The notes under the pieces are model-generated. The model saw only the letters and a program-made list of their open reading frames with translations, was not told the origin of the DNA and searched no databases. Of a stretch of 64,000 bases of DNA, positions 2,066 through 61,184 are shown one piece after another. Each line of letters begins with the position of its first letter. Within the stretch, counting starts at the first letter, position 1. A program made the position numbers and the translations under genes. The stretch is from Candidatus Woesearchaeota archaeon (GTDB lineage Archaea > Nanobdellota > Nanobdellia > Pacearchaeales > GW2011-AR1): the NCBI GenBank assembly GCA_964578345.1, contig CAZOCP010000001.1, forward strand, positions 2,028 through 66,027, written 5' to 3'.

Positions 2066-2338
2066 TTGGGTATGTCAAATGCTACCCGTATTAGTTTTGT
2101 TGCAAGAAGTAAAAGAAGGAAGGAACTCTTAGAAATTTTGAATAAATCCAAAGAAATTAGCCAGCCAGAAATAATGAAGTTATCAAAACAATACAAATCT
2201 CACAATTCACGAACTCTTAAAGAATTATCTGATAAGGGACTAATAGTTTGTGTTAATCCTGAAGACAGGTCTTTCAAATTCTACAAAATAACAAAGAAAG
2301 GAAAAGAAATATTGAAAGAAGCTATAAGAATTAGTTAA
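2066..2338 (+). CDS. small winged-helix DNA-binding protein
   Basis: 90 aa, basic; helix-turn-helix-like segment; adjacent and convergent to the integrase. Confidence 0.35.
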   Translation: MGMSNATRISFVARSKRRKELLEILNKSKEISQPEIMKLSKQYKSHNSRTLKELSDKGLIVCVNPEDRSFKFYKITKKGKEILKEAIRIS

Positions 2339-3102
2339 GTCTGCTTTGATAACTTTATCTTTTCAATCTCTAATTCTAACTTTTTAATTTCCAGTAGTTT
2401 ATCTGCTTCTGTTTGCGAGCTATAGCTTTGTGGTAAGACATAAGGATTCATTTGATGATTAAAGGCTTGATTTATTGCTCTCTGTCTCTGGACGTCGCTT
2501 ATTCTTGCGTATATCTGGGTGGTTGTGACTTGATTGTGCCCTAAGAGGTCTGAGATTGTATAAATATCAACACCCTTATCACTTAAATAAGTAGCATAGC
2601 TGTGGCGTAGAGTGTGAAAATAATATTTGTGTCTGGTAATTTTCTTAATTGTTTCTTTTCCGTTTACTTTTGTTTTAAACTCTAATTCCATTGCAGGAAT
2701 TAAAAGCCCAGTTTTACTCAGTGCTTCACGATATTGTTCTCCTAAACTCTTTTTACGAATATGTGCGTCAGGGGATTTATCTGATGGGAATAACCACTTA
2801 CCACCATCTATTATTTCAATCCATTTCTTTATTGGGCTTATCATCTGTGGTGGAATAGGAACATATCTATCTTTGCCATAACCGCTTAAACTTCTTTTGC
2901 TATTCTTTCCATCAGTAACTTTCAATCTTTGTTTTTCAAGGTCAACATCTTCTATTTTTAGATTACAGACTTCAGAAATTCTCAAGCCACAGAAAAAAGC
3001 GAGAGCCGAAGCAATTGCAACTTTAGGTCTGTCTACGGCATCAAAAATTTTAATCAACTGCTCAACATTCAAAACGCTTGGTAGTTTATTATTGTTGCTC
3101 AT
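2335..3102 (-). CDS. tyrosine recombinase/integrase, catalytic domain
   Basis: C-terminal HTLRHSYATYLSDKGVDIYTISDLLGH...TQIYARI matches the R-H-R-Y catalytic signature of XerC/D-type integrases; it lacks an N-terminal core-binding domain. Confidence 0.8.
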   Translation of the reverse strand: MSNNNKLPSVLNVEQLIKIFDAVDRPKVAIASALAFFCGLRISEVCNLKIEDVDLEKQRLKVTDGKNSKRSLSGYGKDRYVPIPPQMISPIKKWIEIIDGGKWLFPSDKSPDAHIRKKSLGEQYREALSKTGLLIPAMELEFKTKVNGKETIKKITRHKYYFHTLRHSYATYLSDKGVDIYTISDLLGHNQVTTTQIYARISDVQRQRAINQAFNHQMNPYVLPQSYSSQTEADKLLEIKKLELEIEKIKLSKQT

Positions 3103-6563: not shown

Positions 6564-7472
6564 TCATGATGTATGAAATTCAACAATATCTTTATCTTTT
6601 AAAATATGGCCAAGGCCCACTTTTTGATTTGGAAATTTGCTCGAGGGGCCAGTAACGCGAGTTGCTTTTATTCTTTGAGAAAAACCCTTAAGTATACTTT
6701 CTGCAGCATCTTTGACTGTGGAGTTCTGAGACAAAACCAAGGGGATTTGAGAAATAGATTTGCCCGGCTCTTTCATGTAGACGCGGACGACGCCCATGTT
6801 TTGAAATATTTTTTCTTTTAATTGTTCAATTCCCCTGTTTGAAAAACAAGATATTAGTATTGCAGGAAGTTTTTTACTTCTTATTTTTTCCTGGAGTTTG
6901 CGAATTTCCTCTTCTGATAATAGATCTATTTTATTTACAATTATTATTCTCTTTCCTGTTGTTTTTACTAAATATGGAGAGATTTTTTCTATTTCTTCTA
7001 ACTTAGTAATCACTAGGATAATCAAGTCTGCAGTGTTTGCTACCCCCATATCTAACTTTTCTGATCCTATACTTGGAAGATCAACTATTTGCGCCCTTAC
7101 ACCACGATACTCAAGCGTGCCAACTTCTGGAGTTTGTGTAGTAAAAGGATGCTCAGATATGAGCGGGCAAGCGTTTGTAATTTTTGATAGAAGCGAAGAT
7201 TTGCCTGATTTTGTGAATCCGATGAGAACACATTGAAATCCTTCTTTACGAATAGTCTTACGTGTTGTTTTTCCTATTTTTTTGCTTTTTTCTTTTTTTT
7301 CTTTAAGCTTTTTAAGGCGGGTTTTAAGTTCAGCAAGTAGATTCTCACTAGATTTATGTTTAGGGGCAGATCTAATCATCCCTTCCAGTGCAGTAATTTT
7401 TTCTTCTATTGTTGCTGCCCGCAAATATATCTTTTCTGCATTGATAAATTCATAAGATGCATTAACTGGCAT
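6564..7472 (-). CDS. Obg-family GTPase of DRG type with C-terminal TGS domain
   Basis: G1 GFTKSGKSS, G3 DLPS, G4 NKID; N-terminal helical region and C-terminal TGS-like beta-grasp. Confidence 0.7.
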   Translation of the reverse strand: MPVNASYEFINAEKIYLRAATIEEKITALEGMIRSAPKHKSSENLLAELKTRLKKLKEKKEKSKKIGKTTRKTIRKEGFQCVLIGFTKSGKSSLLSKITNACPLISEHPFTTQTPEVGTLEYRGVRAQIVDLPSIGSEKLDMGVANTADLIILVITKLEEIEKISPYLVKTTGKRIIIVNKIDLLSEEEIRKLQEKIRSKKLPAILISCFSNRGIEQLKEKIFQNMGVVRVYMKEPGKSISQIPLVLSQNSTVKDAAESILKGFSQRIKATRVTGPSSKFPNQKVGLGHILKDKDIVEFHTS

Positions 7473-7522
7473 GTTTCTTTATTGGAGGCAATATTTATTA
7501 ATCCTCTCTCTTTGGAGAAAGC

Positions 7523-8719
7523 ATGAGATTTCTTCGTAAAAAGTTGAAGAACGGCATAACGGTACTTATGGAACAGCGGGAGCTACCTGTAATTGCTGCC
7601 AGCATTACTAACCTTCACGGTGCTGGTTTAGAAGATGCTAAAATCAAAGGTATTTCGCATATGGTTGAGCACATGCTCTTTACTGGAACTAAGACAAGAA
7701 CCCATGAAGACATTTCTCGTGAGATCGAGAAGAAAGGAGGAATTTTGAATGCTTTTACTGCGAGCGAAGTTACTTCGTATTGGTTTAAGTTACCGAGTGA
7801 ACACTTGTTTAAAGGTTTTGATATCCTCTGTGATATGCTCAAGAATGCTATTTTTAATTTAGAAAAGTTCGAGAAGGAAAAAAAAGTTATTCTAGAAGAA
7901 ATCAAGATGTATCATGATACGCCTGAGCGTTATATTTATGATATTATCGCGCAGAACCTCTACTCGCCTCCTTTTGGTTTGCCTGTTATAGGCGATGCAA
8001 ATAGTGTATCTAGCTTGTCGCGAGATTTCGTTATTGAATACTTTAAAAAACATTATTCACCTAGTACATACTTGGCGGTTTTAGTCGGCAAGGCTGACTT
8101 TGATACAGTGTGTGATTATTTAGAGCAGCAATTTCCTTCCGGACAACGAACCATTCCCCAGATTAAAGTTTTGCCTATTATTTGCCATACAGTCGAAGAA
8201 CGAGCAGGAATTGATCAAGCACACTATATTTTTGGAGTACATGCTCCATTGTATGGAACACATGAATACTCTGTGCTTGAAGTTCTGGATGCCTATCTTG
8301 CAAACGGCATGAGTTCGCGGCTTTTTCTTAAGATTCGGGAGGAAAAAGGACTTGCATATACTGTACGAGGCTCGCTTAATGCAGAAAGAAGCTATTCTTA
8401 CTATACTATTTATACTGGAACAAATAAAGCGGCGATTTCCGAAATACAAAAAATAATTCTCGATGAATTTGTAGCCATTGAAAAGATGAATGCGAAAGAT
8501 CTGGCAGAGGCAAAGCAACTCTTAATTGGCCAGCGTAAAATTAGCAGTGAAGAAAGCACAAAGGTAATGACTGAGTTGCTCTTTGCAGAGGTTGTGGGAA
8601 AGGCAGAGGATTATTATGAGCACGATAAGAGAATACAATCAGTAAATTTACAACAAGTAAAGACTTTAGCTGGGGAATTGATCAAGAAATACAGCACAGC
8701 GATAATTGTACCAAAGTGA
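7523..8719 (+). CDS. M16-family zinc peptidase (pitrilysin/insulinase-like)
   Basis: Inverted zinc motif HMVEHM (HxxEH) near the N-terminus; length and fold pattern of the M16B subfamily. Confidence 0.75.
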   Translation: MRFLRKKLKNGITVLMEQRELPVIAASITNLHGAGLEDAKIKGISHMVEHMLFTGTKTRTHEDISREIEKKGGILNAFTASEVTSYWFKLPSEHLFKGFDILCDMLKNAIFNLEKFEKEKKVILEEIKMYHDTPERYIYDIIAQNLYSPPFGLPVIGDANSVSSLSRDFVIEYFKKHYSPSTYLAVLVGKADFDTVCDYLEQQFPSGQRTIPQIKVLPIICHTVEERAGIDQAHYIFGVHAPLYGTHEYSVLEVLDAYLANGMSSRLFLKIREEKGLAYTVRGSLNAERSYSYYTIYTGTNKAAISEIQKIILDEFVAIEKMNAKDLAEAKQLLIGQRKISSEESTKVMTELLFAEVVGKAEDYYEHDKRIQSVNLQQVKTLAGELIKKYSTAIIVPK

Positions 8720-36027: not shown

Positions 36028-36101
36028 TAGGCGGGCAGGGATTTGAACCCTGATCAGTTCCTCCGCAAGGAACTATTCTATCCTGGTTGAACTACTCGCC
36101 T
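36028..36101 (-). tRNA. tRNA-Arg (anticodon GCG)
   Basis: Hand-folded. Acceptor AGGCGAG/CCCGCCT (one A-C mismatch), D arm with GG, anticodon stem GTTCC/GGAAC with loop TTGCGGA, T arm CAGGG-TTCAAAT-CCCTG, discriminator A. Confidence 0.65.
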
Positions 36102-37197
36102 GTTGTAGTCTAGCAAGGTTTTTCGGATTATTTGAACTTATCTCTTTTAGCCATTTTTCTACCATTAATTTACCATTTAAGTCTATTTTCCATTTTCCAA
36201 CAGATGGGATAAAGCCCAATTTAATTAGCATTTCTTTAACTTCTCTTATCAAATGTTGAGATTTAATCGTGAAAGTTACTGTCGGATAATTTTTCTTCGA
36301 TTTTGAAAAACTTACACAACCATCCGTATCAAACAACCCCCTTATAAATCCTATATATGTCTTTTTATTTCTACTTTCAATTATCTTTTTAGGTACTTTT
36401 ATTCTTTCAATTTTATTTCCATAAGGTATATCCAAAACTTTATTCTTAAAGTCAAATAATGCTTGGGAGTAAATCTCAAAACCAACAACGCTTTCTAGTT
36501 CCATAAGCCTTAAGTCAATATTATATAAATCTTTATATAATGGAAATAAGAAATTTGTCATGTAGTCTTTTTCTTTTTTACTTATTTTAACTGAAAAGTA
36601 TTTTTTATTAAATGATAAACATCCATCTCCTAGATGGACCCCAATTTCTTCTGCTAGTTCAGGAGACATTTGCTTTGGAAACTTTAGGCCTTTTTGTTTA
36701 TCGCCTTTACTAAAGTTTATTTGATTTATGTTTAAAAGTATTTTTTTATTTATAAAATATTGACGATTTTCTATTTCTAATTTATTACTTCTGTCTTTTC
36801 TTTTTTTCATTTTAGTTTCGATTGCCTTTTTTATAAATTCCTTATTATATTTACCAATTAAATTTTTAACAGCTTTCTTACCTGCATTGCTTCTGATTTG
36901 ATGGAATCTTGGATCATGCCATAGATTTTTTAAATGGTTTATCTTCTTCTCAACACCCTGCTTTCCGCCTTTTATGCTCCCCCAATTGTCCGGTTTTTTA
37001 TCGTAGATTTCTGGATTTGTGAACTCTTTTGGAATTAAATTTTCTGGCATGTATAGCGATCCTAATCTATATTTTTGTAGGGTTTTTACAGGAATTCTCA
37101 CTTTGACAGATAAATCATTAAAATTATTAACTTTATATTTATCTTTTAAAAAATTGAAGAATTTTTCTCGTTCTTTTTTTGTTAGTAAGATTCTCAT
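36073..37197 (-). CDS. free-standing LAGLIDADG-family homing endonuclease-like protein
   Basis: Two LAGLIDADG-type motifs, VHLGDGCLSF and LFDTDGCVSF; the ORF 3' end runs 29 nt into the tRNA-Arg gene. Confidence 0.65.
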   Translation of the reverse strand: MRILLTKKEREKFFNFLKDKYKVNNFNDLSVKVRIPVKTLQKYRLGSLYMPENLIPKEFTNPEIYDKKPDNWGSIKGGKQGVEKKINHLKNLWHDPRFHQIRSNAGKKAVKNLIGKYNKEFIKKAIETKMKKRKDRSNKLEIENRQYFINKKILLNINQINFSKGDKQKGLKFPKQMSPELAEEIGVHLGDGCLSFNKKYFSVKISKKEKDYMTNFLFPLYKDLYNIDLRLMELESVVGFEIYSQALFDFKNKVLDIPYGNKIERIKVPKKIIESRNKKTYIGFIRGLFDTDGCVSFSKSKKNYPTVTFTIKSQHLIREVKEMLIKLGFIPSVGKWKIDLNGKLMVEKWLKEISSNNPKNLARLQQASSSTRIE

Positions 37198-40671: not shown

Positions 40672-41366
40672 TTTTCTTTAATTTCAAAGAGAATTTTTTT
40701 CTCCTTTGCTCTTTTTTCTATTGTTTGAAGAGCGAGATCTATTTTATTATTGGCTTCTTTAAACTCTTTTGCAGACATGGTTATTGAAAATCGGGACGAT
40801 CCTAAGTAGCGGATATCTTCACTCGATGATGCAAGTATTTCTTTTATTTCCAAGACTCCTTCATTAGACATAGATTTTAAAATGAATATCTTTTTCGCCT
40901 GTTTTTCCTTTTCTTTTTTTTCAGAGAGCATCTGCGCAATTTTTTTTGCTTCATTTTTTTTCATAAATTGCTCGAGAAGCGAGCTATTATCTCTCGCCAT
41001 CTCTATAAAAATTGAGATATCATATTTCTTTTTTATTTCCTCAATTATTATATCTGGGAGTTCTATTTCTGTTTTCAGCAGGCTGGTAAAATTTTTTTCT
41101 TTTCTATATCTTTCTTCAGAATCTTTTTTTTCTTTAGCAGTAACTCTTCTTAGGCTTAGCTGGGGATTTCCTCCAACAATCTTCATAACTTTGCATACTA
41201 TTTTTTTATTTGGGGCCACGTATTCTCTTAGATTTCTTATTCTTCCTGCTGCAACTTCAGACATCTGTATACTGCCTTCGCCATTTCCTTCTATCCCTAC
41301 AAAAACAGCAGTTCCTTCAATTTTTTTGACTGTACACATTACAATGTCTTCTTCTTTTAGCTCCAT
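40668..41366 (-). CDS. eif2a: translation initiation factor 2 alpha subunit (aIF2-alpha)
   Basis: S1 domain VGIEGNGEGSIQMSEVAAGRIRNLREYV...KVMKIVGGNPQLSLRRV; start set at the internal MELKEED so the overlap with rps27e is only 10 nt. Confidence 0.7.
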   Translation of the reverse strand: MELKEEDIVMCTVKKIEGTAVFVGIEGNGEGSIQMSEVAAGRIRNLREYVAPNKKIVCKVMKIVGGNPQLSLRRVTAKEKKDSEERYRKEKNFTSLLKTEIELPDIIIEEIKKKYDISIFIEMARDNSSLLEQFMKKNEAKKIAQMLSEKKEKEKQAKKIFILKSMSNEGVLEIKEILASSSEDIRYLGSSRFSITMSAKEFKEANNKIDLALQTIEKRAKEKKILFEIKEK

Positions 41367-41539
41367 AAAACCTCCTTTACAAGCGCTCTGACTTTTGCTT
41401 TTCCCCCTTGAGTTTTTAACAGTAAATAATTGCACTGCCGGCATTTTACCTTAAGAGATGCGTTGCCAAATGTTATCTGTTTTCTTGAACATCTTGGGCA
41501 AACCAACTTCAAAAATTTGCTAGTTATCTTTTTGTCCAT
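41357..41539 (-). CDS. rps27e: ribosomal protein S27e
   Basis: C4 zinc ribbon VCPRCSRKQITFGNASLKVKCRQCNYLLLKTQGGKAKV, typical S27e. Confidence 0.85.
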   Translation of the reverse strand: MDKKITSKFLKLVCPRCSRKQITFGNASLKVKCRQCNYLLLKTQGGKAKVRALVKEVLWS

Positions 41540-41569: not shown

Positions 41570-41830
41570 TTTTACTATCAAAAAAACGATGTGCCACCTC
41601 GCCTTAAAGGGCGAGGTTTGTGATAGGCACTCGTTTCATCAAGGACGAAGTCCTTGAGTGTCATCGAGAATCGGAGATTCTCGAGATTTGGATGCTCAGG
41701 AATGCAGCGCCCTAAGGGGCGCGGTTTTCACCGCATTCCTGACATGAATAACTACATGGTTTAGATAACTTGATTTTGGCAGTTATCCATTAGAGAACTG
41801 CGTGCAAATGTCATGCAACTAAGGCAGTTC
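41570..41830 (-). ncRNA. hairpin-dense structured element (copy A of a repeated motif), ending on the minus strand with a hairpin plus T7 run; possible small structured RNA or long 3' UTR
   Basis: Four or more perfect 7-10-bp stems (TCGAGAATC/GATTCTCGA, CAAGGAC/GTCCTTG, CCTCGCC/GGCGAGG, AGAGAACTGC/GCAGTTCTCT), a conserved box TGAAACGAGTGCCTATCACAAACC and a T7 tract. Confidence 0.3.
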
Positions 41831-41831
41831 T

Positions 41832-43139
41832 CTATAATCCCTGTTCTAGAACTTTCTGTAGCTCTACAATAAACTGTGTTTCGCATTTTTTAGATATCAA
41901 GCATCCCGCAGCATTTTGATGCCCGCCGACTTCCCCGCCCAGCTGCACTACGACTTGATTAAGAATCTCTCGGACATTTCTTCCTTCTTTACCAACAATT
42001 CTAGCAGAAACTTTTATCTTATCTTCATTGTACGCTAAAGCGACTATTATCGTTCCTTCTGCATATTTAGGGGAATGCGACATAATTGATGCAACAGTGC
42101 CGATTATAGTGTCTTTGATATAATCTTTTGCATTAATTATAGCATAGTTTTTTCCTAGAATTTTTTCAGCTTCAGTTACATGCTTGAGTGCGGCAACTAA
42201 ATTTTGTTTGTATTCTATATATATCCTTTCAGCTTCATCTTTGCATTTTTTATTGCCTAAACAGAATCCTAAAGCTACTCTTGGGTGTTCCATTCTACTG
42301 CAAGCGTTTATGAGAGCTGAAAATTCTCTCGCGTCTTCCTGCCTGTTAAAGGCTTTTATTAGGTAAAGATTCCCTATTAAGTCATGATGGTTTTTTTCAC
42401 CCATGCTTCTCAGCATTACTGCCGTGCTTAAGTTTGTCATTTCTTCTTCTGTAAGCTCAGCGAGAGTTTTATACTTTCCATCTGTTTTCTGTATATTTGC
42501 TTCCCTCAAAAGTTCAAGAACTCCGCGATAAGACCCCGTAACTCCTGGAATGAAAGTATTTGTCGAATATTCAAGCGCCTTGTCTAATGAACGTGAGGAG
42601 GGATATATTAACAGGCCTTTTTTAATAATTGTTTCAGCATCTTTAAGTATTTCATCGTAAATTTTGTTTATATTTTTTTCCAGTGAATCCCCGACCATTC
42701 CTATAACTGCCAGATAGGCAAGGTCCTTGTTCTGTTCAGAAAGAGATTTTGCGAATAAGTATGATATAGCCGAGCCTGAAATCTGTTCGTGTTTTTCCAA
42801 ATGAGGGTTAATCATCATTACATTAGCAGGAATATCTTGAATAATTTCATGATGATCAAAAACAAATATTTCTGTTTTTTTGTCTTTTAAATAACTCAGG
42901 CTTCCAGATGCCAAATCCAGGAAAATTAAGCAATGGTTTTCAGGCAGCTCTTTTAATAGTTCTTCGTCCAATCCCTTTACTATACGAAGATGAAATTTCT
43001 TGTTTTGTCTTTGTAATGCTCTTGCAAATATTGCTGCCGCAGTAATCCCATCCGTATCGTGATGGCTGATTATTGTCAACGGCTTCAGCTTGCTTGCTTC
43101 GCTGATTCTCTCTATTGCTTTTTTTATTATTTCGCGCAT
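41832..43139 (-). CDS. DHH/DHHA1 phosphoesterase, archaeal RecJ/Cdc45-like (GAN-type)
   Basis: DHH motifs ISHHDTDGI and VFDHH, DHHA1 GGGH motif (GGEVGGHQNAAG); lies adjacent to rps15 as in many archaea. Confidence 0.65.
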   Translation of the reverse strand: MREIIKKAIERISEASKLKPLTIISHHDTDGITAAAIFARALQRQNKKFHLRIVKGLDEELLKELPENHCLIFLDLASGSLSYLKDKKTEIFVFDHHEIIQDIPANVMMINPHLEKHEQISGSAISYLFAKSLSEQNKDLAYLAVIGMVGDSLEKNINKIYDEILKDAETIIKKGLLIYPSSRSLDKALEYSTNTFIPGVTGSYRGVLELLREANIQKTDGKYKTLAELTEEEMTNLSTAVMLRSMGEKNHHDLIGNLYLIKAFNRQEDAREFSALINACSRMEHPRVALGFCLGNKKCKDEAERIYIEYKQNLVAALKHVTEAEKILGKNYAIINAKDYIKDTIIGTVASIMSHSPKYAEGTIIVALAYNEDKIKVSARIVGKEGRNVREILNQVVVQLGGEVGGHQNAAGCLISKKCETQFIVELQKVLEQGL

Positions 43140-44821: not shown

Positions 44822-44845
44822 GTTTATAAAAGAATTTTGATGCGC

Positions 44846-44873
44846 TCAGGAATCTTCGATTCCTGACGTTTTG
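44846..44873 (+). terminator. intrinsic-type terminator hairpin plus T tract
   Basis: TCAGGAATC-TTC-GATTCCTGA 9-bp stem followed by CGTTTTG, immediately after the stop of 44543..44821. Confidence 0.4.
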
Positions 44874-44904
44874 ATAAAAAATAGATAATTTATTTTTTGC
44901 AAGA

Positions 44905-48633: not shown

Positions 48634-50197
48634 GATTGATTTCCTCCTCTACGCCGAAATCATAAACTTTCAGTTCTCTTGTTTTTAGGTTTAACACTGG
48701 AACTTTTGCAGGTTCTGGAATATTTCCAACTTTCTCTTCAAATTCTGTCTGGGCCTGCCAACAGCTTCCAGTTATAATAAGAGTCCCGTTGTAATTCTCA
48801 ATATCTAGTCTATGCACTTCTCCTGTACATAAAACATCTGGAACTTCTTCTATAACCAATGGATCTTTTTCTGCATTTGGGATATAGATAACTGAAGAAT
48901 GTGTTGGTGCAAGGTGCCTTCTCTTTAACATATGTCTAACTGCTTTGGCGGGCGATCTGTGCGCTTTCATTTCCCTTAATTCAGGAATCTCATTAATAAA
49001 AGAATGTATGCTTGCTCCATGGTACATTAAAACTTTAAATTCTTTGTCCTGCTCATAGAGCTTCACAAGCGAGGGATTAGTCACAAGCACTAAATTTTCT
49101 ATTTCGTATAAAGGAGAGCCGTAATATCTATCGATTAATGGCTGTGGTTCGGCAACTCTTGTTGCGTCATGCTGCCCAGGACACATAAAAATAATTATGT
49201 TTTTAGGTATTCTTTTCATATAAGAAGCCAAAAGAGAATATTGCTCTTTCATGCTTTTCAAAGCTAAAACCTGCTCTTGCCCGGGAAAAATTCCAACTCC
49301 ATCGACATTGTCTCCGGAAAAAAACAAATATTTAATTTTCTTAGCTGATTCTTCATCACTGTTAATCCACTCTAAAAAACGTTCGAAGCTTTTGTATAAA
49401 TGTCTGTCGCTCCCACAATGAACGTCGGATAAAAAAGCAATTGATATGTCTTGCTCGAATTTTGATTTCTCAAGAAGAAAAGCATCTGGGAAATAAATAT
49501 CATGAATAAAAATAATATCTCGGTTTCCTGACGCTTTAACAGCAACTACATCATCTAGCTGCAGTTCTCGGGCTTTGTTAAAAACCTCTAGCCGCTCTAA
49601 TTTTACCAAGCCGCTGATTTTTCCTGTCAAATCTTCCAAAGAAATAATTAAGTTCTTATTTTTTGTCTGCCTCTTTTCATTTACGATTCCAATAATGCTT
49701 AATTGTTGCCTCTCACTAGAAATTTTATTTATTGAACACAGATTCGTCAAATCTTGCCTTTGCATTAAAATACGTTGTAGTTGTTGATAGCGCGAACGAA
49801 AGTGATTTATAAAGTCAGAAACCTCGATTTTCTTAGAGGGAAGCGTAGATGAATAAAATAGTCTATAAGAAGAAGTCTGGGGGTTTATATTTTCTATTCC
49901 CGCACTTGATAGATTTATTTTTTCTTTTCTAATTTCAAATTTAATTCCTAATTTAATAAAAACATTCTCTATAGATAATTTATCTTCGCCTGACAGTTGC
50001 CCTAAAATTTGCTGAACATATTCTATATTATTTGATAAAGTAGATTTGGTTATTAATTTCTGCCCGGAAAATCTAACAAGATTTTCCAAAAAAACTTGCG
50101 CAATTTTTTTATCTTGTATGCTCTCTAAAATATCAAAAATCTCTTTTTCTAATAATAGCCCGCTCTCCCGAATTGTGTTTAAAATATCAGAATTCAT
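48623..50197 (-). CDS. polB: DNA polymerase II (PolD) small subunit DP1 (calcineurin-like phosphoesterase/exonuclease)
   Basis: OB-fold region plus metallophosphoesterase motifs (FLSDVHCGSD, FFSGDNVDG, GQHD, GHxH). Confidence 0.9.
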   Translation of the reverse strand: MNSDILNTIRESGLLLEKEIFDILESIQDKKIAQVFLENLVRFSGQKLITKSTLSNNIEYVQQILGQLSGEDKLSIENVFIKLGIKFEIRKEKINLSSAGIENINPQTSSYRLFYSSTLPSKKIEVSDFINHFRSRYQQLQRILMQRQDLTNLCSINKISSERQQLSIIGIVNEKRQTKNKNLIISLEDLTGKISGLVKLERLEVFNKARELQLDDVVAVKASGNRDIIFIHDIYFPDAFLLEKSKFEQDISIAFLSDVHCGSDRHLYKSFERFLEWINSDEESAKKIKYLFFSGDNVDGVGIFPGQEQVLALKSMKEQYSLLASYMKRIPKNIIIFMCPGQHDATRVAEPQPLIDRYYGSPLYEIENLVLVTNPSLVKLYEQDKEFKVLMYHGASIHSFINEIPELREMKAHRSPAKAVRHMLKRRHLAPTHSSVIYIPNAEKDPLVIEEVPDVLCTGEVHRLDIENYNGTLIITGSCWQAQTEFEEKVGNIPEPAKVPVLNLKTRELKVYDFGVEEEINRAY

Positions 50198-51399
50198 TGG
50201 AATAAAGCACGATCTAAAATATCCCGCGCCTTTGGTTTAATGTTTTGGCCTAACATCAGTTTTATCTCGCGCATTCTCCCCCTACGTCCTTTGCTGATTA
50301 CTTGCGCAGTTATAATCCCAAGCATATCAAACTCCGCGAGAATATCTGAAATTCTTCTTTGTGTTAGTATTTCATTTTTCGTCTTCTCGCATAATAATTG
50401 ATAAGCACCATAAACTTCGCCTGTGTAAATGGGGCTAGACTTATTTGTATCGTCTAATTGCATAATTGCAGCCAAAACCAATTGAAATTGTCTTGGCTCG
50501 CTCTCGATAATATCAAGCATTTTGTCTTTCTCTATTTTCTGATTTGCAGAATCTATATGGGATAATGTAATAGACTTGCTCTCTTCTCTTTCTGCCAGCT
50601 CTCCCGCAACTCTCAGCAAATCAAGCGCTCTTCTGGCGTCCCCGTGTTCTCTAGCTGCATAAGCCGCGCATTTTGCTAGAACTCCTTCGCCTAATACCCC
50701 TTGTTTAAATGCGTGCTGCGCTCTCTCTCTCAAAATATCCTGTAATTGCAGTGCATTATAGGGCGAGAAAACCATCTCCTCCTCTCCTAAAGAGCTCTTA
50801 ACTCTAGGATCCAAATTATCCTTAAATGTTAGGCTGTTGCTTATCCCAATAATGCTGATCTGGGCGTGTCTCAGCTCTGAATTCAGTCTGGTCAAAGTAT
50901 AAATAAAACTATCAGAAATCTTTTTGACTGCTTGGTCTATTTCATCTAATACTATAATAATAATTTGTTTTTTATAATCTATTAATTCAATAAATCTTCG
51001 ATAAACTTCATCCGTAGGAAGTCCGGTTGCCGGGACTGTCCCCCCTAAAGTATTTATCAACTCTGCAAGAATCCTGTATTCTGTGTCTGCAATTTTTTTA
51101 AGTTTGCAGTTTATATAAACAAATTGCAGGTTCTCCTCTCCAAGTTCTTTTATTTTATCCATTAGCTTCAAACCAACGTGTTGGACGCATAGCGTCTTTC
51201 CGCTTCCTGTCTTGCCATAAACAAAAAGATTGCTGATTCTCTCTCCTCGCAGCGCGGGCGCCAATATGGAAGCCACCGAAGCAATTTGTTCGTCTCTGTG
51301 CGGAACAAAATCAGGCGTATAGTTCGATTGTAAACAGCTCTTATTTTTAAATAAACTCTGAGATACAAATGCATTAAAAATACCCTCAACTCTGTCCAT
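50194..51399 (-). CDS. cdc6: Orc1/Cdc6 replication initiator
   Basis: AAA+ Walker A VYGKTGSGKT, Walker B, sensor motifs and a C-terminal winged helix. Confidence 0.9.
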   Translation of the reverse strand: MDRVEGIFNAFVSQSLFKNKSCLQSNYTPDFVPHRDEQIASVASILAPALRGERISNLFVYGKTGSGKTLCVQHVGLKLMDKIKELGEENLQFVYINCKLKKIADTEYRILAELINTLGGTVPATGLPTDEVYRRFIELIDYKKQIIIIVLDEIDQAVKKISDSFIYTLTRLNSELRHAQISIIGISNSLTFKDNLDPRVKSSLGEEEMVFSPYNALQLQDILRERAQHAFKQGVLGEGVLAKCAAYAAREHGDARRALDLLRVAGELAEREESKSITLSHIDSANQKIEKDKMLDIIESEPRQFQLVLAAIMQLDDTNKSSPIYTGEVYGAYQLLCEKTKNEILTQRRISDILAEFDMLGIITAQVISKGRRGRMREIKLMLGQNIKPKARDILDRALFQ

Positions 51400-51439: not shown

Positions 51440-52060
51440 CTTATAGGTATTATTTTTCATATTTCCTGTGGAAAAAAGAATTTAAAGAGAATAAACCCTC
51501 CTTGAAGAAAAAAACAAACAATATCTCACACCTTGCTTTCCTATGGAGAACATAAACAAATGAAACATTCCCAAATTAATAAATGATTTGTATATAACCA
51601 TAAATTTGTATATAACCATAAAATACAGTTTATATTAACTTTATACTAAATACAATTTATATTAACTTTATACTATATAATAATACTCTAGAGTATTATT
51701 AATTACCAATCAGAACATTATATATAACCATAAATACACTTTTTATTACATAGTCCTATTAATCCGAATATTATACATAACTATAAAAAATACTTTCTAA
51801 TATATTATATTTAATTATATACTATTATATAATATCTTTTTCTATATAGTATATTTAATTATATACTATTATAAAACATACTTTCCAATATAATACATTT
51901 ACTTATATACTATTACATAATATATTTTTCTATATATTATATTTATATATGGAAAAATTTAAAAAGGAAGAAAAAATCCACGAGGAACAAACTCACTATA
52001 TAAATCCCCTCCATGAGAAACAATAGGGTCTCCAGGAAACAACCTTAAACCAAGAAACAA
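51440..52060. promoter_or_regulatory. putative replication origin (oriC) with ORB-like dyads, AT-rich direct repeats and a palindrome
   Basis: ORB-like TTTCC-N3-GGAAAA (51462-51475), TTTCC-TAT-GGAGAA (51536-51550), TCCA-CGA-GGAAC (51976-51992), TCCATGAGAAAC (52006-52022), TCCAGGAAAC (52029-52044). Direct repeats TATATAACCATAAAT x3 and TTTATATTAACTTTATACT x2. A 22-nt perfect palindrome lies at 51679-51700; the element is adjacent to cdc6. Confidence 0.6.
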
Positions 52061-56324: not shown

Positions 56325-56396
56325 GTAGACTAATAAAATTTAATAGAGATTATTTAAGTCTTGCGAAACTTATTTTCCAATCCTCAATGGCCCTCA

Positions 56397-56464
56397 AGGA
56401 CGAAAGTCCCTAATGAAACGAGTGCCTATCAAAACCTCACCTCATCAAGAATTGGAAATTCTTG
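56397..56464 (+). repeat. copy B of the repeated structured motif (GGAC-GAAA-GTCC hairpin, conserved box ATGAAACGAGTGCCTATCAAAACC, 8-bp hairpin CAAGAATT-GGA-AATTCTTG)
   Basis: The 22-24-nt box is near-identical to the reverse complement of 41604-41628, with flanking hairpins in the same relative order. Confidence 0.4.
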
Positions 56465-56575
56465 ACTGCCTTCAAGGACAATTTACTTTTACTCTATCTT
56501 CTTTCTAAACACACATAGAGAAATATATATTATATAAGATAATTCTTTATATACTCTCTATTTTTTCCTTACTAA

Positions 56576-57178
56576 ATGAGCAACTATATTAAAATAACTT
56601 CTAAAAATCTCACAGAAATCAAAAAAGCTTTAGATCTTAAAAAAGGAAAACTTCTGCTTTACGAACCAGATTTAGCGTATCGCCTTTCTTCAAGAAAAAC
56701 AGAAAGAGTCTTTATGGGGAGCGCTCACTTTCATTTATTTGGCAATGCGCGCATTATTTCCTCTCAGTTTATATCAGCTTCTTCATTTAACCATAAAGAG
56801 AGCAGAGAATATACTTTAAGGCAAAGAATACCCTCAGACGATTTATCATGGGAAGTAGCTTACTCTTTTTTCAATTCATTAAATCTTCCTAACAACTATG
56901 TCTTCCAAATTTATGGTCAGGTTATGATAGGATGCCCTCTTTTTTATGAAAGAGGTAGATCTCTCTATATACCCAATGGGAAAAGCTTAGAAAACGCCCT
57001 AGAGGATACTTTAACTGTTTTTGTCAATGAAGTTAACAAAGAAAATCAGACAGGTTTAGGAAAAAAGGAAATAAACTTAATTCTTGAATATGCAATAGAA
57101 GATTTAAAAACAGGCAAAATCCTGGAACACAATCTCAAAGCTGGCAAAGCAGCCGACGCAGTAACCGGGCTTGCTTAA
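56576..57178 (+). CDS. hypothetical protein
   Basis: 200-aa ORF. Confidence 0.3.
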   Translation: MSNYIKITSKNLTEIKKALDLKKGKLLLYEPDLAYRLSSRKTERVFMGSAHFHLFGNARIISSQFISASSFNHKESREYTLRQRIPSDDLSWEVAYSFFNSLNLPNNYVFQIYGQVMIGCPLFYERGRSLYIPNGKSLENALEDTLTVFVNEVNKENQTGLGKKEINLILEYAIEDLKTGKILEHNLKAGKAADAVTGLA

Positions 57179-57544: not shown

Positions 57545-58213
57545 ATGGATCCTATAAAAGAAGCCTTCATAAAAGTAAAAGAAGAGATAGAATACTTAAA
57601 AAAAGAGCTATCTTCATTAAAACATGTGCTTACAGAACTAACAACCCAAACAATTCCAACAGACAATTCCAACAAACCAACACAAGATACAAACCAACAA
57701 ACCAACACACAGGAAATTCCAACACAAAAGTTAAACGAACACCATTTATTCTATCATAAGCCTCTAAAAACACCAAATTCAAGTATCTCCACAGGAAATA
57801 AAGGGGTTCCAACAAACCAACCAACAAACCAACCAACAAACCAACACACAGGAAATGAAGGGGTCCTCTCAGAATTAGACCAATTAGAAACAGTTTCTAA
57901 GCTTTTGACAACTCTAGACGCAGTTAAAAAAGAAGTTCGTATAAAATTTAAAAGATTAACAGACCAAGAAATGAGTGTTTTTACTATGATATACACACTT
58001 GAAGAAAGGGGATTTATCGTCGATTATCATATCCTATCCATCCAATTAAATCTCACACAGATATCCATCAGAGATTACATAAGAAAACTAATCCAAAAAG
58101 GAATTCCTATTCGAAAATCTAAAGAAAACAACAAAAAAATAACCCTTACCATCGCTCCCGAGCTAAGAAAAATCACTTCTTTAGAAACCATAATTGCCCT
58201 TCGGGAGCTATAA
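57545..58213 (+). CDS. coiled-coil protein with a PTNQ tandem repeat and C-terminal winged-helix domain
   Basis: N-terminal coiled coil, low-complexity (PTNQ)n encoded by the CCAACAAACCAA tandem repeat, and C-terminal MSVFTMIYTLEERGFIVDYHILSIQLNLTQISIRDYIRKLIQKG wHTH. Confidence 0.4.
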   Translation: MDPIKEAFIKVKEEIEYLKKELSSLKHVLTELTTQTIPTDNSNKPTQDTNQQTNTQEIPTQKLNEHHLFYHKPLKTPNSSISTGNKGVPTNQPTNQPTNQHTGNEGVLSELDQLETVSKLLTTLDAVKKEVRIKFKRLTDQEMSVFTMIYTLEERGFIVDYHILSIQLNLTQISIRDYIRKLIQKGIPIRKSKENNKKITLTIAPELRKITSLETIIALREL

Positions 58214-60012: not shown

Positions 60013-60044
60013 GCTCAATCTTTCTAGCTTAAACAAAAAATTTC
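60013..60044 (+). repeat. 32-nt direct repeat copy 1 (GCTCAATCTTTCTAGCTTAAACAAAAAATTTC)
   Basis: 30/32 identity with 60649-60680; each copy lies 60-80 nt downstream of a tiny membrane-protein gene. Confidence 0.45.
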
Positions 60045-60435
60045 AGCGTCACTCAAAGATTCGGTTTAATAGAAAGATTCATAAGACATTGTCACTTAAG
60101 ATTTATATGTCAAGAATATCGAGACCTCGAGTCAAATATGGAAAAATAAAAATTAGGTTGTCTAATAGAAATTTAAGGATAAAAGAAGTATAAAACTATT
60201 ACACGAATCTCGAAAGAATCCTTCCTCTATAACGCCTAGCCACGATCTCGAAACAATGCTAAAAGAATCAGCAACAAAGATATAAGTCCACGTTATTCTT
60301 TCCCACATAATATTTTCAAAAATAAATAGCCTCAGTTATGAGTGAGGCCGAAGGCCGAACGCGCGCCACACCACACCACACCACAATATCAGACTATATC
60401 AAAAAATATATAAAGTCTTAAAACTTTAATACATA

Positions 60436-60597
60436 AATGGTTTCTATAAGTCTAACAATATCAGGGATTCTGGCAATTATTATAGGGATACTTATCTTAA
60501 TATGGCCCAAAATACTTCGTATAGGTGTTGGTTTTTATCTTATCATCATAGGGATTCTTCAACTTTTTAACTCCTATGTGCAATTTTCTCCTAACTA
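60436..60597 (+). CDS. small membrane protein (53 aa; not in the ORF track)
   Basis: Translation MVSISLTISGILAIIIGILILIWPKILRIGVGFYLIIIGILQLFNSYVQFSPN (DUF308/HdeD-like GIL repeat pattern). Confidence 0.35.
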
Positions 60598-60648: not shown

Positions 60649-60680
60649 GCTCAATCTTTCTAGCTTCAACAAAAATTTTC
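60649..60680 (+). repeat. 32-nt direct repeat copy 2
   Basis: See copy 1. Confidence 0.45.
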
Positions 60681-61184
60681 CGCACATCAAAAAGTTCTCT
60701 TTATCCAGGAGATTTTTTCTTTAATATTAAAACAATAGCCTTAGTCGTATAGGCGCCGAAGGCGCCGTCACAACAGCCCAAATCAATAAAAACAGCAGAT
60801 AAAAGAAGGAGAGAAGAATTAGACAACACAGAATTCATAAAATAAATAAATTTAAGTCCGCGTAATATTTCTCCTTTCGCTTAAAACTTTCAACACACTC
60901 TAATCTAAGACCGGCTATTTAGGACTTTTCAACCAAAAGGCATGGCAGAATTACGGTTAATGATGATTAGACGAAATCTCTCACTTGCCTGTCGGTTGCC
61001 CGTCGACAAAAAACATAAAATAGGCAATTCTTATAATCGATTTCTCATTCCGTTTAAACATTTTCAAAAACGGATACGCCATTCGGCGTATAATCTCGTT
61101 TAAACGCAATTGTCAAGAAGTAAATGATATCGGAAGTTGTTCTCCCACCCAATAGTGGCGCGCGCTGGAAAAAGAAAAATAAAT

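Follow-up and report, generated by a model that had tools for sequence, protein, structure and literature searches.

A repeated box in a DPANN archaeal genome as a probable part of a lineage-specific family of mobile, REP/BIME-like hairpin cassettes

A short box that occurs twice, in opposite orientations, in 64 kb of DNA from an uncultured DPANN archaeon (hereafter the window, i.e., the whole stretch that was analyzed, at its full length) is a genuine repeat, beyond chance. The explanation that we favor, with somewhat better than even confidence, is that the box is the best-preserved stretch of a 66-nt segment common to two loci (copies A and B) rather than an independent motif, and that both loci belong to a lineage-specific, REP/BIME-like family of mobile hairpin and terminator cassettes, in which copy B would be a relic. 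The host DNA is AT-rich (~33–34% GC), and the nearest homologues of the DHH/RecJ-like and Lhr proteins encoded in the window are labelled Pacearchaeota/Nanoarchaeota and are 72–77% identical to them. Copy A is found on the minus strand between the genes for a DHH phosphoesterase (41832–43139) and S27e (41357–41539). Copy B is found on the plus strand between the divergent genes for the Lhr helicase (53718–56309/56324) and a 200-aa ORF (56576–57178) that could not be annotated, where it had been correctly placed by the sequence-only reading that this analysis followed up. The chromosomal replication origin region, with Cdc6/Orc1, PolD DP1/DP2 and an AT-rich repeat tract (51.4–52.2 kb), falls between the two copies.

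Within the box, the 18-mer TGAAACGAGTGCCTATCA is present at 41621–41638 (minus strand) and 56414–56431 (plus strand). With up to three mismatches allowed, it has exactly two matches in the window against an expectation of 0.06, and two matches were reached in none of 100 shuffles. The earlier claim of a non-chance repeat is thereby upheld, and the homology is longer than had been claimed: sensitive BLAST aligns 66/67 nt at 80.6% identity (41675–41610, minus strand, vs. 56376–56441, plus strand; E = 3.8e-10), and only three other repeat pairs in the window reach E < 1e-4. The box of copy B spans 56413–56436 (plus strand), as originally given; that of copy A (ATGAAACGAGTGCCTATCACAAACC) spans 41615–41639 (minus strand), the interval first assigned to it (41604–41628) being ~11 nt off, and it forms the 5' strand of the lower stem of a hairpin, H6, together with an 8-nt bulge. 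The alignment holds 13 differences in 67 columns, and its longest identical run is 19 nt. Given that number of differences, an identical run of this length has a probability of roughly p ~ 0.2 (a rough estimate), or about one in five, and therefore gives no sign of special constraint on the box. Moreover, element C, a third full unit that is described below, does not contain the box.

Copy A is part of element A (41576–41834, minus strand), a 259-nt hairpin-rich insertion between the DHH/RecJ-like and S27e genes that comprises six hairpins (H1–H6) and a run of seven T (T7). Folding of the ~261 nt downstream of the DHH stop codon into these six hairpins yields −114.7 kcal/mol, compared with −61.3 ± 4.4 in shuffles (z = −12.3), which is the strongest fold among the larger (>90 nt) intergenic gaps scanned in the window. 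The insert is absent from the DHH–S27e junction of two relatives, L003 and L004, where the gap is filled by an uncalled S27e ORF (L003) or the spacer is 24 nt long (L004). The present DHH stop codon is the TAG at the start of the element. A C-terminus of the form [VIL]K[VI] is shared by 90 of the 120 closest DHH homologues, and the window protein alone ends in ...KVLEQGL, three residues short. The codons GTA AAA GTT TAA (VKV and a stop) follow in frame immediately past the insert (41575–41564), where the sequence GTAAAAGTTTAA is intact and identical to that of L004. The empty site in relatives and the retention of these codons in frame beyond the insert show that element A is a clean 259-nt insertion, which interrupts the DHH/RecJ-like gene three codons ahead of its ancestral stop. 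The retained GTAAAAGTTTAAAAG overlaps a TATA-like TTTAAAAG located ~25 nt upstream of the S27e start, probably the S27e promoter, and this overlap would explain why the codons have been kept. The dinucleotide TA stands at both junctions (GGATTA/TAGAG...TTGATA/GTAAAAG, slashes marking the junctions) and, with only 2 bases, is compatible both with a target duplication and with microhomology. Comparison of the two ends by eye (TAGAGAACTGCC... vs. ...CGTTTTTTTGATA) revealed no terminal inverted repeats, and the element folds into several local hairpins, with no end-to-end fold-back.

An insert of 259 nt that is highly structured, lies within a coding sequence and leaves the downstream codons intact could also be a small self-splicing group I or bulge–helix–bulge (BHB) intron in the DHH gene, with copy B as a fragment of another copy; small group I introns (~280–320 nt) are indeed known in rRNA genes of Pacearchaeota (PMC6125680). 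We consider an intron very improbable. No match to Intron_gpI (RF00028) or to any other intron or ribozyme was obtained even at E ≤ 10, and the three placements of the TA-ambiguous junctions give 3' ends A, U or A, none of which pairs a U-ending 5' exon with a G-ending intron. The junction regions are not complementary, so that no BHB is possible, the T7 run would terminate transcription ahead of the 3' exon, and the overlap with the likely S27e promoter would account for the conservation of the codons.

The part of element A that recurs elsewhere in the window is its 3' half (all coordinates on the minus strand). Hairpin H4 (TCGAGAATC-TCC-GATTCTCGA, 41664–41684), with 9 bp and a 3-nt loop, is represented in both the perfect-hairpin scans and the family alignment described below; H5 (TCAAGGAC-TTC-GTCCTTGA, 41639–41657) is likewise perfect and corresponds to the stem previously noted as CTCAAGGAC. 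In the minimum free energy (MFE) structure, H6 (41580–41637) is a bipartite hairpin composed of GAAACGAGTGCC, a bulge, ACCTCGCC-CTTTAA-GGCGAGGT and GGCAC-A-TCGTTTT. Its 5' strand is contributed by the box part GAAACGAGUGCC, together with the 8-nt bulge, and is closed by GGCAC-A-UCGUUUU running into U7, i.e., the T7 run (41586–41580) that gives the element a terminator-like 3' end. By eye, H1, H2 and the outer stem of H3 (TAGAGAACT..., TGGATAACT... and TCAGGAATGC...) look like further, diverged family members; if they are, element A resembles a tandem mosaic of such units.

Copy B, on the other hand, is a 5'-truncated and 3'-diverged mosaic of ~1.5 units that has lost its folding. Its first part, B1 (56376–56441, plus strand), is the 66 nt homologous to 41675–41610 of A and contains what remains of the H4 3' arm, then the linker TGGCC, a degenerate H5 (TCAAGGAC-GAAA-GTCCCTAA, 56394–56413) and the box. 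The homology starts in the H4 loop and stops in the upper H6 stem, within its 5' arm; it thus covers an internal piece of A only, and the 5' arm of H4 is missing from B1. A covariance model built without B (model R2, see below) scores B1 at 25.2 bits (E = 1e-4). The hairpin that had been described as preceding the box at both places is homologous in the two and perfect in A, whereas in B1 it has two uncompensated mismatches, the 3' arm having changed from UUG to CUA; the stems are therefore not preserved in copy B, contrary to the conserved flanking architecture first described. No GGCAC-type partner strand for the box occurs anywhere near copy B, and the region folds no more stably than shuffled sequence (z = −0.57), its stability being matched by 51 of 200 shuffles.

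The second part of copy B, B2 (56445–56479, plus strand), is another, partial unit with a perfect H4-type hairpin (TCAAGAATT-GGA-AATTCTTGA, 56445–56465), the linker CTGCC and an orphan 5' arm of H5 (TTCAAGGAC, 56471–56479). It resembles 23883–23919 (E = 0.002) and receives 28.1 bits (E = 2e-5) from model R2. Since this hairpin is not homologous to H6, the element reported to follow the box at both places turns out to be two different modules, namely H6, which includes the box, in A and the hairpin at 56445–56465 in B. Similarly, the T-rich tract reported after both copies is borne out in A by its T7 but contains no run of at least five T in B. In three relatives, the region upstream of Lhr has a spacer of 41–65 nt followed by different co-directional genes, many of them toxin–antitoxin genes. 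Synteny is thus broken upstream of Lhr, which places copy B at the edge of a variable gene island, and we infer that it is a non-functional relic at this border. The sequence across B is identical in a strain variant of the same species (an ENA contig).

The location of B at a synteny breakpoint, the restriction of the box to two copies and the limits of the homology, which begins in the H4 loop and stops in an H6 arm irrespective of module boundaries, would suit a one-off event with no family behind it, such as the partial duplication of a local sequence, a patch left by gene conversion, or the capture of a 66-nt piece of A as filler DNA at a break upstream of Lhr. We find this rather improbable, as the 80.6% identity implies that the event was old or that the source was a different copy, the partial unit B2 resembles C rather than A, and related cassettes (C and D) are present elsewhere. 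Several other interpretations of the A/B pair were rejected: a DGR template/variable repeat pair (only 7 of the 13 A/B differences are at B adenines, and no RT is found among the scanned ORFs), an att-site duplication caused by an integrative element (the two copies are in inverse orientation, with the origin and other essential genes between them, and B corresponds to an internal fragment) and inversion breakpoints (A is inside a conserved synteny block).

The evidence for a wider family comes from two additional loci, both on the plus strand. Element C (23885–24020) is a paralogue of the 3' half of A, with hairpin hp1 (TTAAGAATT-CCT-AATTCTTGA, 23885–23905), the linker TGGCGT, hairpin hp2 (TCAAGAACT-AAA-AGTTCTTGA, 23912–23932) and a long irregular hairpin followed by T7 (24014–24020). 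Element D (44840–44876) is a minimal unit located 25 nt downstream of the L44e–S3Ae–ORF92 operon, in which a single hairpin (TCAGGAATC-TTC-GATTCCTGA, 44846–44866) is preceded by the linker GATGCGC and followed by a tail, CGTTTTGATA, that echoes the right end of A (CGTTTTTTTGATA). In the full unit, as represented by the 3' half of A and by C, an H4-type hairpin (consensus TCRAGAATY-NNN-RATTCTYGA) is joined through a short linker (TGRCN) to an H5-type hairpin (TCAAGRAC-loop-GTYCTTGA), after which come a long irregular hairpin and T7. Elements A and C are about two-thirds identical over the region of the short hairpins; their long hairpins align poorly, T7 follows the terminal hairpin in both, and their 3' ends are alike (GCGAGG.G..A.AT..TTTTTTT). 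Local alignment scores amount to 21 for A–C (9.6 ± 1.7 in shuffles, reached in 0/500) and 18 for C–D (9.3 ± 1.8, reached in 1/500).

Perfect hairpins with a stem of 8 or more and a loop of 3–8 number 22 in a scan of the window, compared with 5–13 in shuffles. Five of the form TCRRGRA...TYCYYGA, with 8–9-bp stems and 3-nt loops, are present, all of them intergenic and distributed over loci A, B, C and D (23912–23932, 41639–41657, 41664–41684, 44846–44866 and 56445–56465), against 0.06 expected under a first-order Markov model (with a maximum of 1 in 200 simulations); this pattern was defined post hoc, which inflates the exact odds, but the contrast with the relatives, where 85.6 kb contain no such hairpin, is still clear. 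Compensatory changes in the flanking stems, which the sequence-only reading had proposed to look for by alignment, were indeed found: four compensatory base-pair changes separate A from C, all in the two short hairpins, and broken pairs are confined to B1. In an alignment of seven hairpins, 96.4% of the cells are paired, a value partly guaranteed by the discovery route, as five of the seven came from the perfect-hairpin scan; both sides have changed in 4 of 8 pairs, the covariation score is 0.42 vs. 0.24 in shuffles (0/500), and the only two unpaired cells are both in H5 of B1.

Cross-validation by covariance models pointed in the same direction. The model built from A and B only (R1) finds C with 16.7 bits (E ~ 0.05), and the one built from A and C only (R2) finds both units of B as well as D at 44832–44875, with 16.3 bits for the latter (E ~ 0.03). 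Judged by these sequence and model comparisons, the four loci are homologous, the cassettes have multiplied within the genome and their stems have been maintained by compensatory changes. The copy count stands at four loci (7–10 hairpins) in 64 kb, and an extra 5.8 kb of the same genome contains no copy. In the Logan short-read contigs from this organism, breaks fall within A (41771 and 41605) and exactly where the A/B homology ends (56441); these breaks are suggestive of more copies, though the contigs are short everywhere.

Arms of 9 bp separated by a 3-bp spacer are also a plausible layout for the site of a dimeric protein, and B lies between divergent promoters, so that the palindromes could be DNA-level binding sites (operator-like or architectural), with the box in a shared regulatory region. 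We regard such binding sites as quite improbable, because the arms vary by paired, complementarity-preserving changes with no fixed half-site, a pattern characteristic of a nucleic-acid hairpin. The locations of A, C and D at the 3' ends of genes also speak against such sites, as do the tandem stacks of two to five hairpins followed by T7, which are not operator-like.

A different kind of objection to the cassette explanation is raised by the orientation of element C, which runs against (antisense to) both of its neighbors. Its T7 cannot terminate either of them, and an independent small RNA gene fits this arrangement better. The orientation of C is therefore the main difficulty for the favored account, and the leading rival, although unlikely in our estimate, is that A, B and C are paralogous, independently transcribed genes for trans-acting small RNAs, with the box as a functional single-stranded or protein-binding segment. 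Consistent with this possibility, A and C end in T7 past a strong hairpin, as archaeal small RNA genes do, their stems co-vary, and AT-rich TATA-like stretches are present ~25–35 nt upstream of the starts of B and C, though such stretches are ubiquitous at 33% GC. Against it, the sole other carrier of the box, B, is unstructured, without an intact H4, with a damaged H5 and with no partner for the box; the box sequence is absent from C; A is a gene-end insertion with no promoter-like sequence ahead of its shared unit; and D is a bare hairpin.

Furthermore, no Rfam match and no homologue in relatives or public collections was obtained for the proposed RNA. Rfam models, which include hammerhead, group I/II intron, C/D and H/ACA sRNA, RNase P, SRP and HEARO/IS605 RNA families, identified only two tRNAs at gathering score in the whole window, and the further matches in the A and B regions (E ≤ 10) and in the C region (E ≤ 1) were at chance level, with none of relevance. 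Public collections were scanned for exact words, the GTDB set consisting of representatives other than the genome of the window itself. The 18/19-mer had one chance match among GTDB representative genomes (a Flavobacteriaceae MAG) and two chance matches in JGI metagenomes with dissimilar flanks, and a 14-mer had 120 chance matches in IMG/VR, again with dissimilar flanks. A BLAST search with element A gave no match in collections of phage and plasmid sequences. In the orthologous DHH–S27e and Lhr-upstream regions of five Pacearchaeota relatives, blastn, nhmmer, two covariance models and the hairpin scan detected no A- or B-like sequence. The relatives thus do lack the motif, but more than two related copies exist in the window. 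The idea of a conserved small-RNA core, however, is not supported, given the absence of the box from C, the loss of the structure around it in B and the failure to find the motif in the relatives and collections searched.

Individual RNA classes were likewise considered and rejected. For a C/D-box or K-turn RNA, GAUGA is present and the D box is absent; an H/ACA RNA would lack both the 3'-side pocket and the ACA; a hammerhead would have no stem II between CUGAUGA and GAAA; the RNase P CR-I sequence (GAAAGUCC) is only in the unstructured copy B; and SRP RNA had no Rfam match.

A side-by-side comparison with known systems places the cassettes closest to bacterial REP/BIME elements and to small gene-end insertions of the Correia type (MITEs), yet they fail tests that define each of these classes: the GT[AG]G foot is absent, no RAYT is known and terminal inverted repeats are missing. 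REP, BIME and REPIN elements are described as bacterial and as mobilized by RAYT (TnpA_REP) (PMC2817692, PMC3116915, PMC6006769). Similarities to them are extensive: short (~20 nt), species-specific palindromes with 7–9-bp stems and small loops, an intergenic location that is usually at the 3' end of a gene, clustering into mosaic arrays (in A, five related hairpins follow one another) and compensatory changes between copies. REPs have also been proposed to act in termination and mRNA stabilization, and a paired basal stem of 7–20 bp with a loop of 2–5 nt, as used to recognize them, is seen in the five perfect (8–9 bp, 3-nt loop) and two imperfect hairpins of the family. There are also differences. 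REP hairpins are described as carrying a conserved GT[AG]G (or CGTC) tetranucleotide at their foot (PMC3733652, PMC6006769), whereas no GTAG, GTGG or CGTC occurs in the 5' flanks of the family (GATGACAC, GATGGCGT, GATGCGC, AATGGCCC and CCTCA). In the survey of PMC6006769, the REP-associated subclasses shown are distributed among bacteria, and subclass 1.1 (IS200/IS605) is the only one for which Archaea are listed. A high, genome-wide copy number is typical of REPs, and the four loci counted here are those within the 64-kb window. No RAYT or Y1 transposase was found among the 38 window ORFs scanned, and the full cassette units have a long hairpin and T7 in addition.

MITEs such as the Correia-type elements of Neisseria and the Stowaway/IS630-type elements are small non-coding insertions, and such elements duplicate TA. 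The resemblance of the family to MITEs (for a survey in prokaryotes, see PMC11602168) lies in non-coding insertions of ~100–260 nt, the TA at both junctions of A, the empty site in relatives L003 and L004, the insertion at a gene end that changes the C-terminus and supplies a stop codon and a terminator-like hairpin, and truncated relics, which are common among MITEs. The suggestion of a mobile MITE-like module is to this extent supported, by the 259-nt insertion and the related cassettes at 23.9 kb and 44.85 kb, but A has no terminal inverted repeats (by eye), its TA may be a 2-nt microhomology, it forms several local hairpins instead of one long fold-back, and no related transposase was seen in the window. 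More generally, Pfam or PHROGs scans of 38 window ORFs revealed neither a transposase nor an integrase associated with the elements. Non-autonomous elements derived from IS200/IS605 (PATEs), a family known in Archaea (PMC6006769), are similar in having no terminal inverted repeats and no clear target duplication, and in the hairpins at or near both ends of A (the first base of A is also that of H1, and H6 ends 10 nt from the right end). They differ in that the left and right hairpins of A are unlike each other and that neither TnpA nor TnpB is encoded in the window; a target tetranucleotide is not derivable from the single insertion of A.

Oligo-T is an established archaeal termination signal, and hairpins are not required for archaeal termination. 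Elements A and C end in a stable hairpin and U7, D has a hairpin and then CGUUUUG, and both A and D are directly downstream of co-oriented genes, all of which is terminator-like. By the MFE fold, H6 of A runs into T7, and the long hairpin of C is followed by T7, although a strict terminator pattern flags neither A nor B. Runs of T7 or longer number ~109 in 128 kb of strand, so that the chance of finding one no more than 10 nt from any particular site is ~1%. In contrast to these elements, ordinary terminators are not mutually homologous, are not 130–260 nt long and do not arrive as insertions. The earlier proposal of a terminator cassette finds partial support in the full units A and C, which end in T7; copy B contains no run of at least five T.

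Overall, according to the favored explanation, full units would serve as 3'-end cassettes once transcribed: their oligo-U run would terminate archaeal RNA polymerase and the stacked hairpins might protect the 3' end, the latter function of the stems being conjectural given that archaeal termination does not need hairpins. The cassettes could have spread by a hairpin-dependent REP/RAYT- or IS200-like route or by template switching, which we offer as pure speculation. On the best reading, the family is a lineage-specific variant within the known class of dispersed palindromic repeat cassettes. If this explanation holds, even a very small DPANN genome has its own proliferating hairpin cassettes that reshape the ends of its genes, and one of them has taken the place of the final three codons of a RecJ-like gene while giving it a new stop codon and terminator. 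REP-like systems being documented in bacteria, an archaeal analogue would draw attention to the enzyme that moves it. Its practical payoff is modest, the family being lineage-restricted and copy B apparently dead; for annotation, it carries the warning that the box should not be called a conserved small RNA or a regulatory motif.

A more far-reaching possibility, to which we assign a low probability, is that DPANN archaea harbor an active mobile hairpin system that has not been described before and of which these cassettes would be the visible part. It could be an archaeal counterpart of REP/RAYT or a family of mobile structured RNAs (~130–260 nt), and in both forms it would insert precisely at gene ends and supply stop codons and terminators, with the box as a recognition or guide segment instead of neutral sequence.

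Independent short-read assembly data for the same organism (Logan contigs from SRR8863434) break at both element A, the hairpin-rich insert in the end of the DHH/RecJ-like gene, and copy B, its partial homologue upstream of the Lhr helicase gene. Inside element A, one contig (L001) ends at 41771 and another (L132) starts at 41605. In copy B, a third (L127) starts at 56441, exactly where the homology to A ends on the right. These breaks hint at repetition or polymorphism of the modules within the sample, an indication falling short of proof because Logan contigs are short everywhere. The coding part of the DHH gene contains a perfect 10-bp palindrome, GTTCTAGAAC (41843-41852), 9 nt upstream of the site where element A was inserted. 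It resembles an inside-out version of the arms of the hairpin family (AGTTCTTGA / TCAAGAACT); the corresponding sequence in relatives is GTCCTCGA. The palindrome could be a clue to target recognition, or it could be a coincidence.

Further repeats are found beyond copy B. An unannotated ORF (57545-58213) in the variable region adjoining this copy carries an internal 51-nt direct repeat (57667-57717 and 57807-57856, 92% identity). The 1.27 kb between 59917 and 61184, devoid of a long ORF, contains a 57-nt direct repeat (60013-60068 vs. 60649-60703, 82% identity) and a microsatellite-like CACAC run. It also has GC-rich hairpins at about 60341-60370 and 60750-60772 and, at about 60438-60597, a small ORF whose product resembles a membrane protein.

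A minus-strand ORF of 374 aa at 36073-37197 encodes a LAGLIDADG_3 homing-endonuclease domain. It adjoins and overlaps the gene for tRNA-Arg(GCG), which lies on the minus strand at 36028-36101 (joint region 36028-37197). The minus strand at 2335-3102 encodes a tyrosine recombinase, possibly XerA, that carries a Phage_integrase domain. Relatives have a hotspot for toxin-antitoxin genes (PemK, PIN, ParE, MazE) upstream of Lhr, and in one relative an AbiEii gene is inserted between Cdc6 and PolD DP1. These last three observations concern 2335-3102 of the window, 7153-7857 of the DNA record L129, and the sequence upstream of Lhr in the records L130 and L131.

The 508-nt intergenic region holding element C, a paralogue of the 3' half of element A, also harbors, within 23597-23723, a perfect 10-bp GC-only hairpin, GCGCGCCGTC-CCCCACCC-GACGGCGCGC (23647-23674). 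An Rfam family of H/ACA snoRNAs gives an overlapping match below threshold (25.9 bits, with the gathering score set at 50; E ~ 0.01), which is probably due to chance, even if an archaeal H/ACA-like sRNA could be encoded there.

The Cdc6/Orc1 gene (50194-51399, minus strand) adjoins a very AT-rich spacer of 800 nt (GC 0.12-0.28) with diverged tandem repeats (51596-51818 vs. 51708-51950, 66% identity, E = 1e-11) and several perfect AT-only hairpins, and PolD DP1 and DP2 lie directly downstream. The segment 50194-52204 is likely a replication origin.
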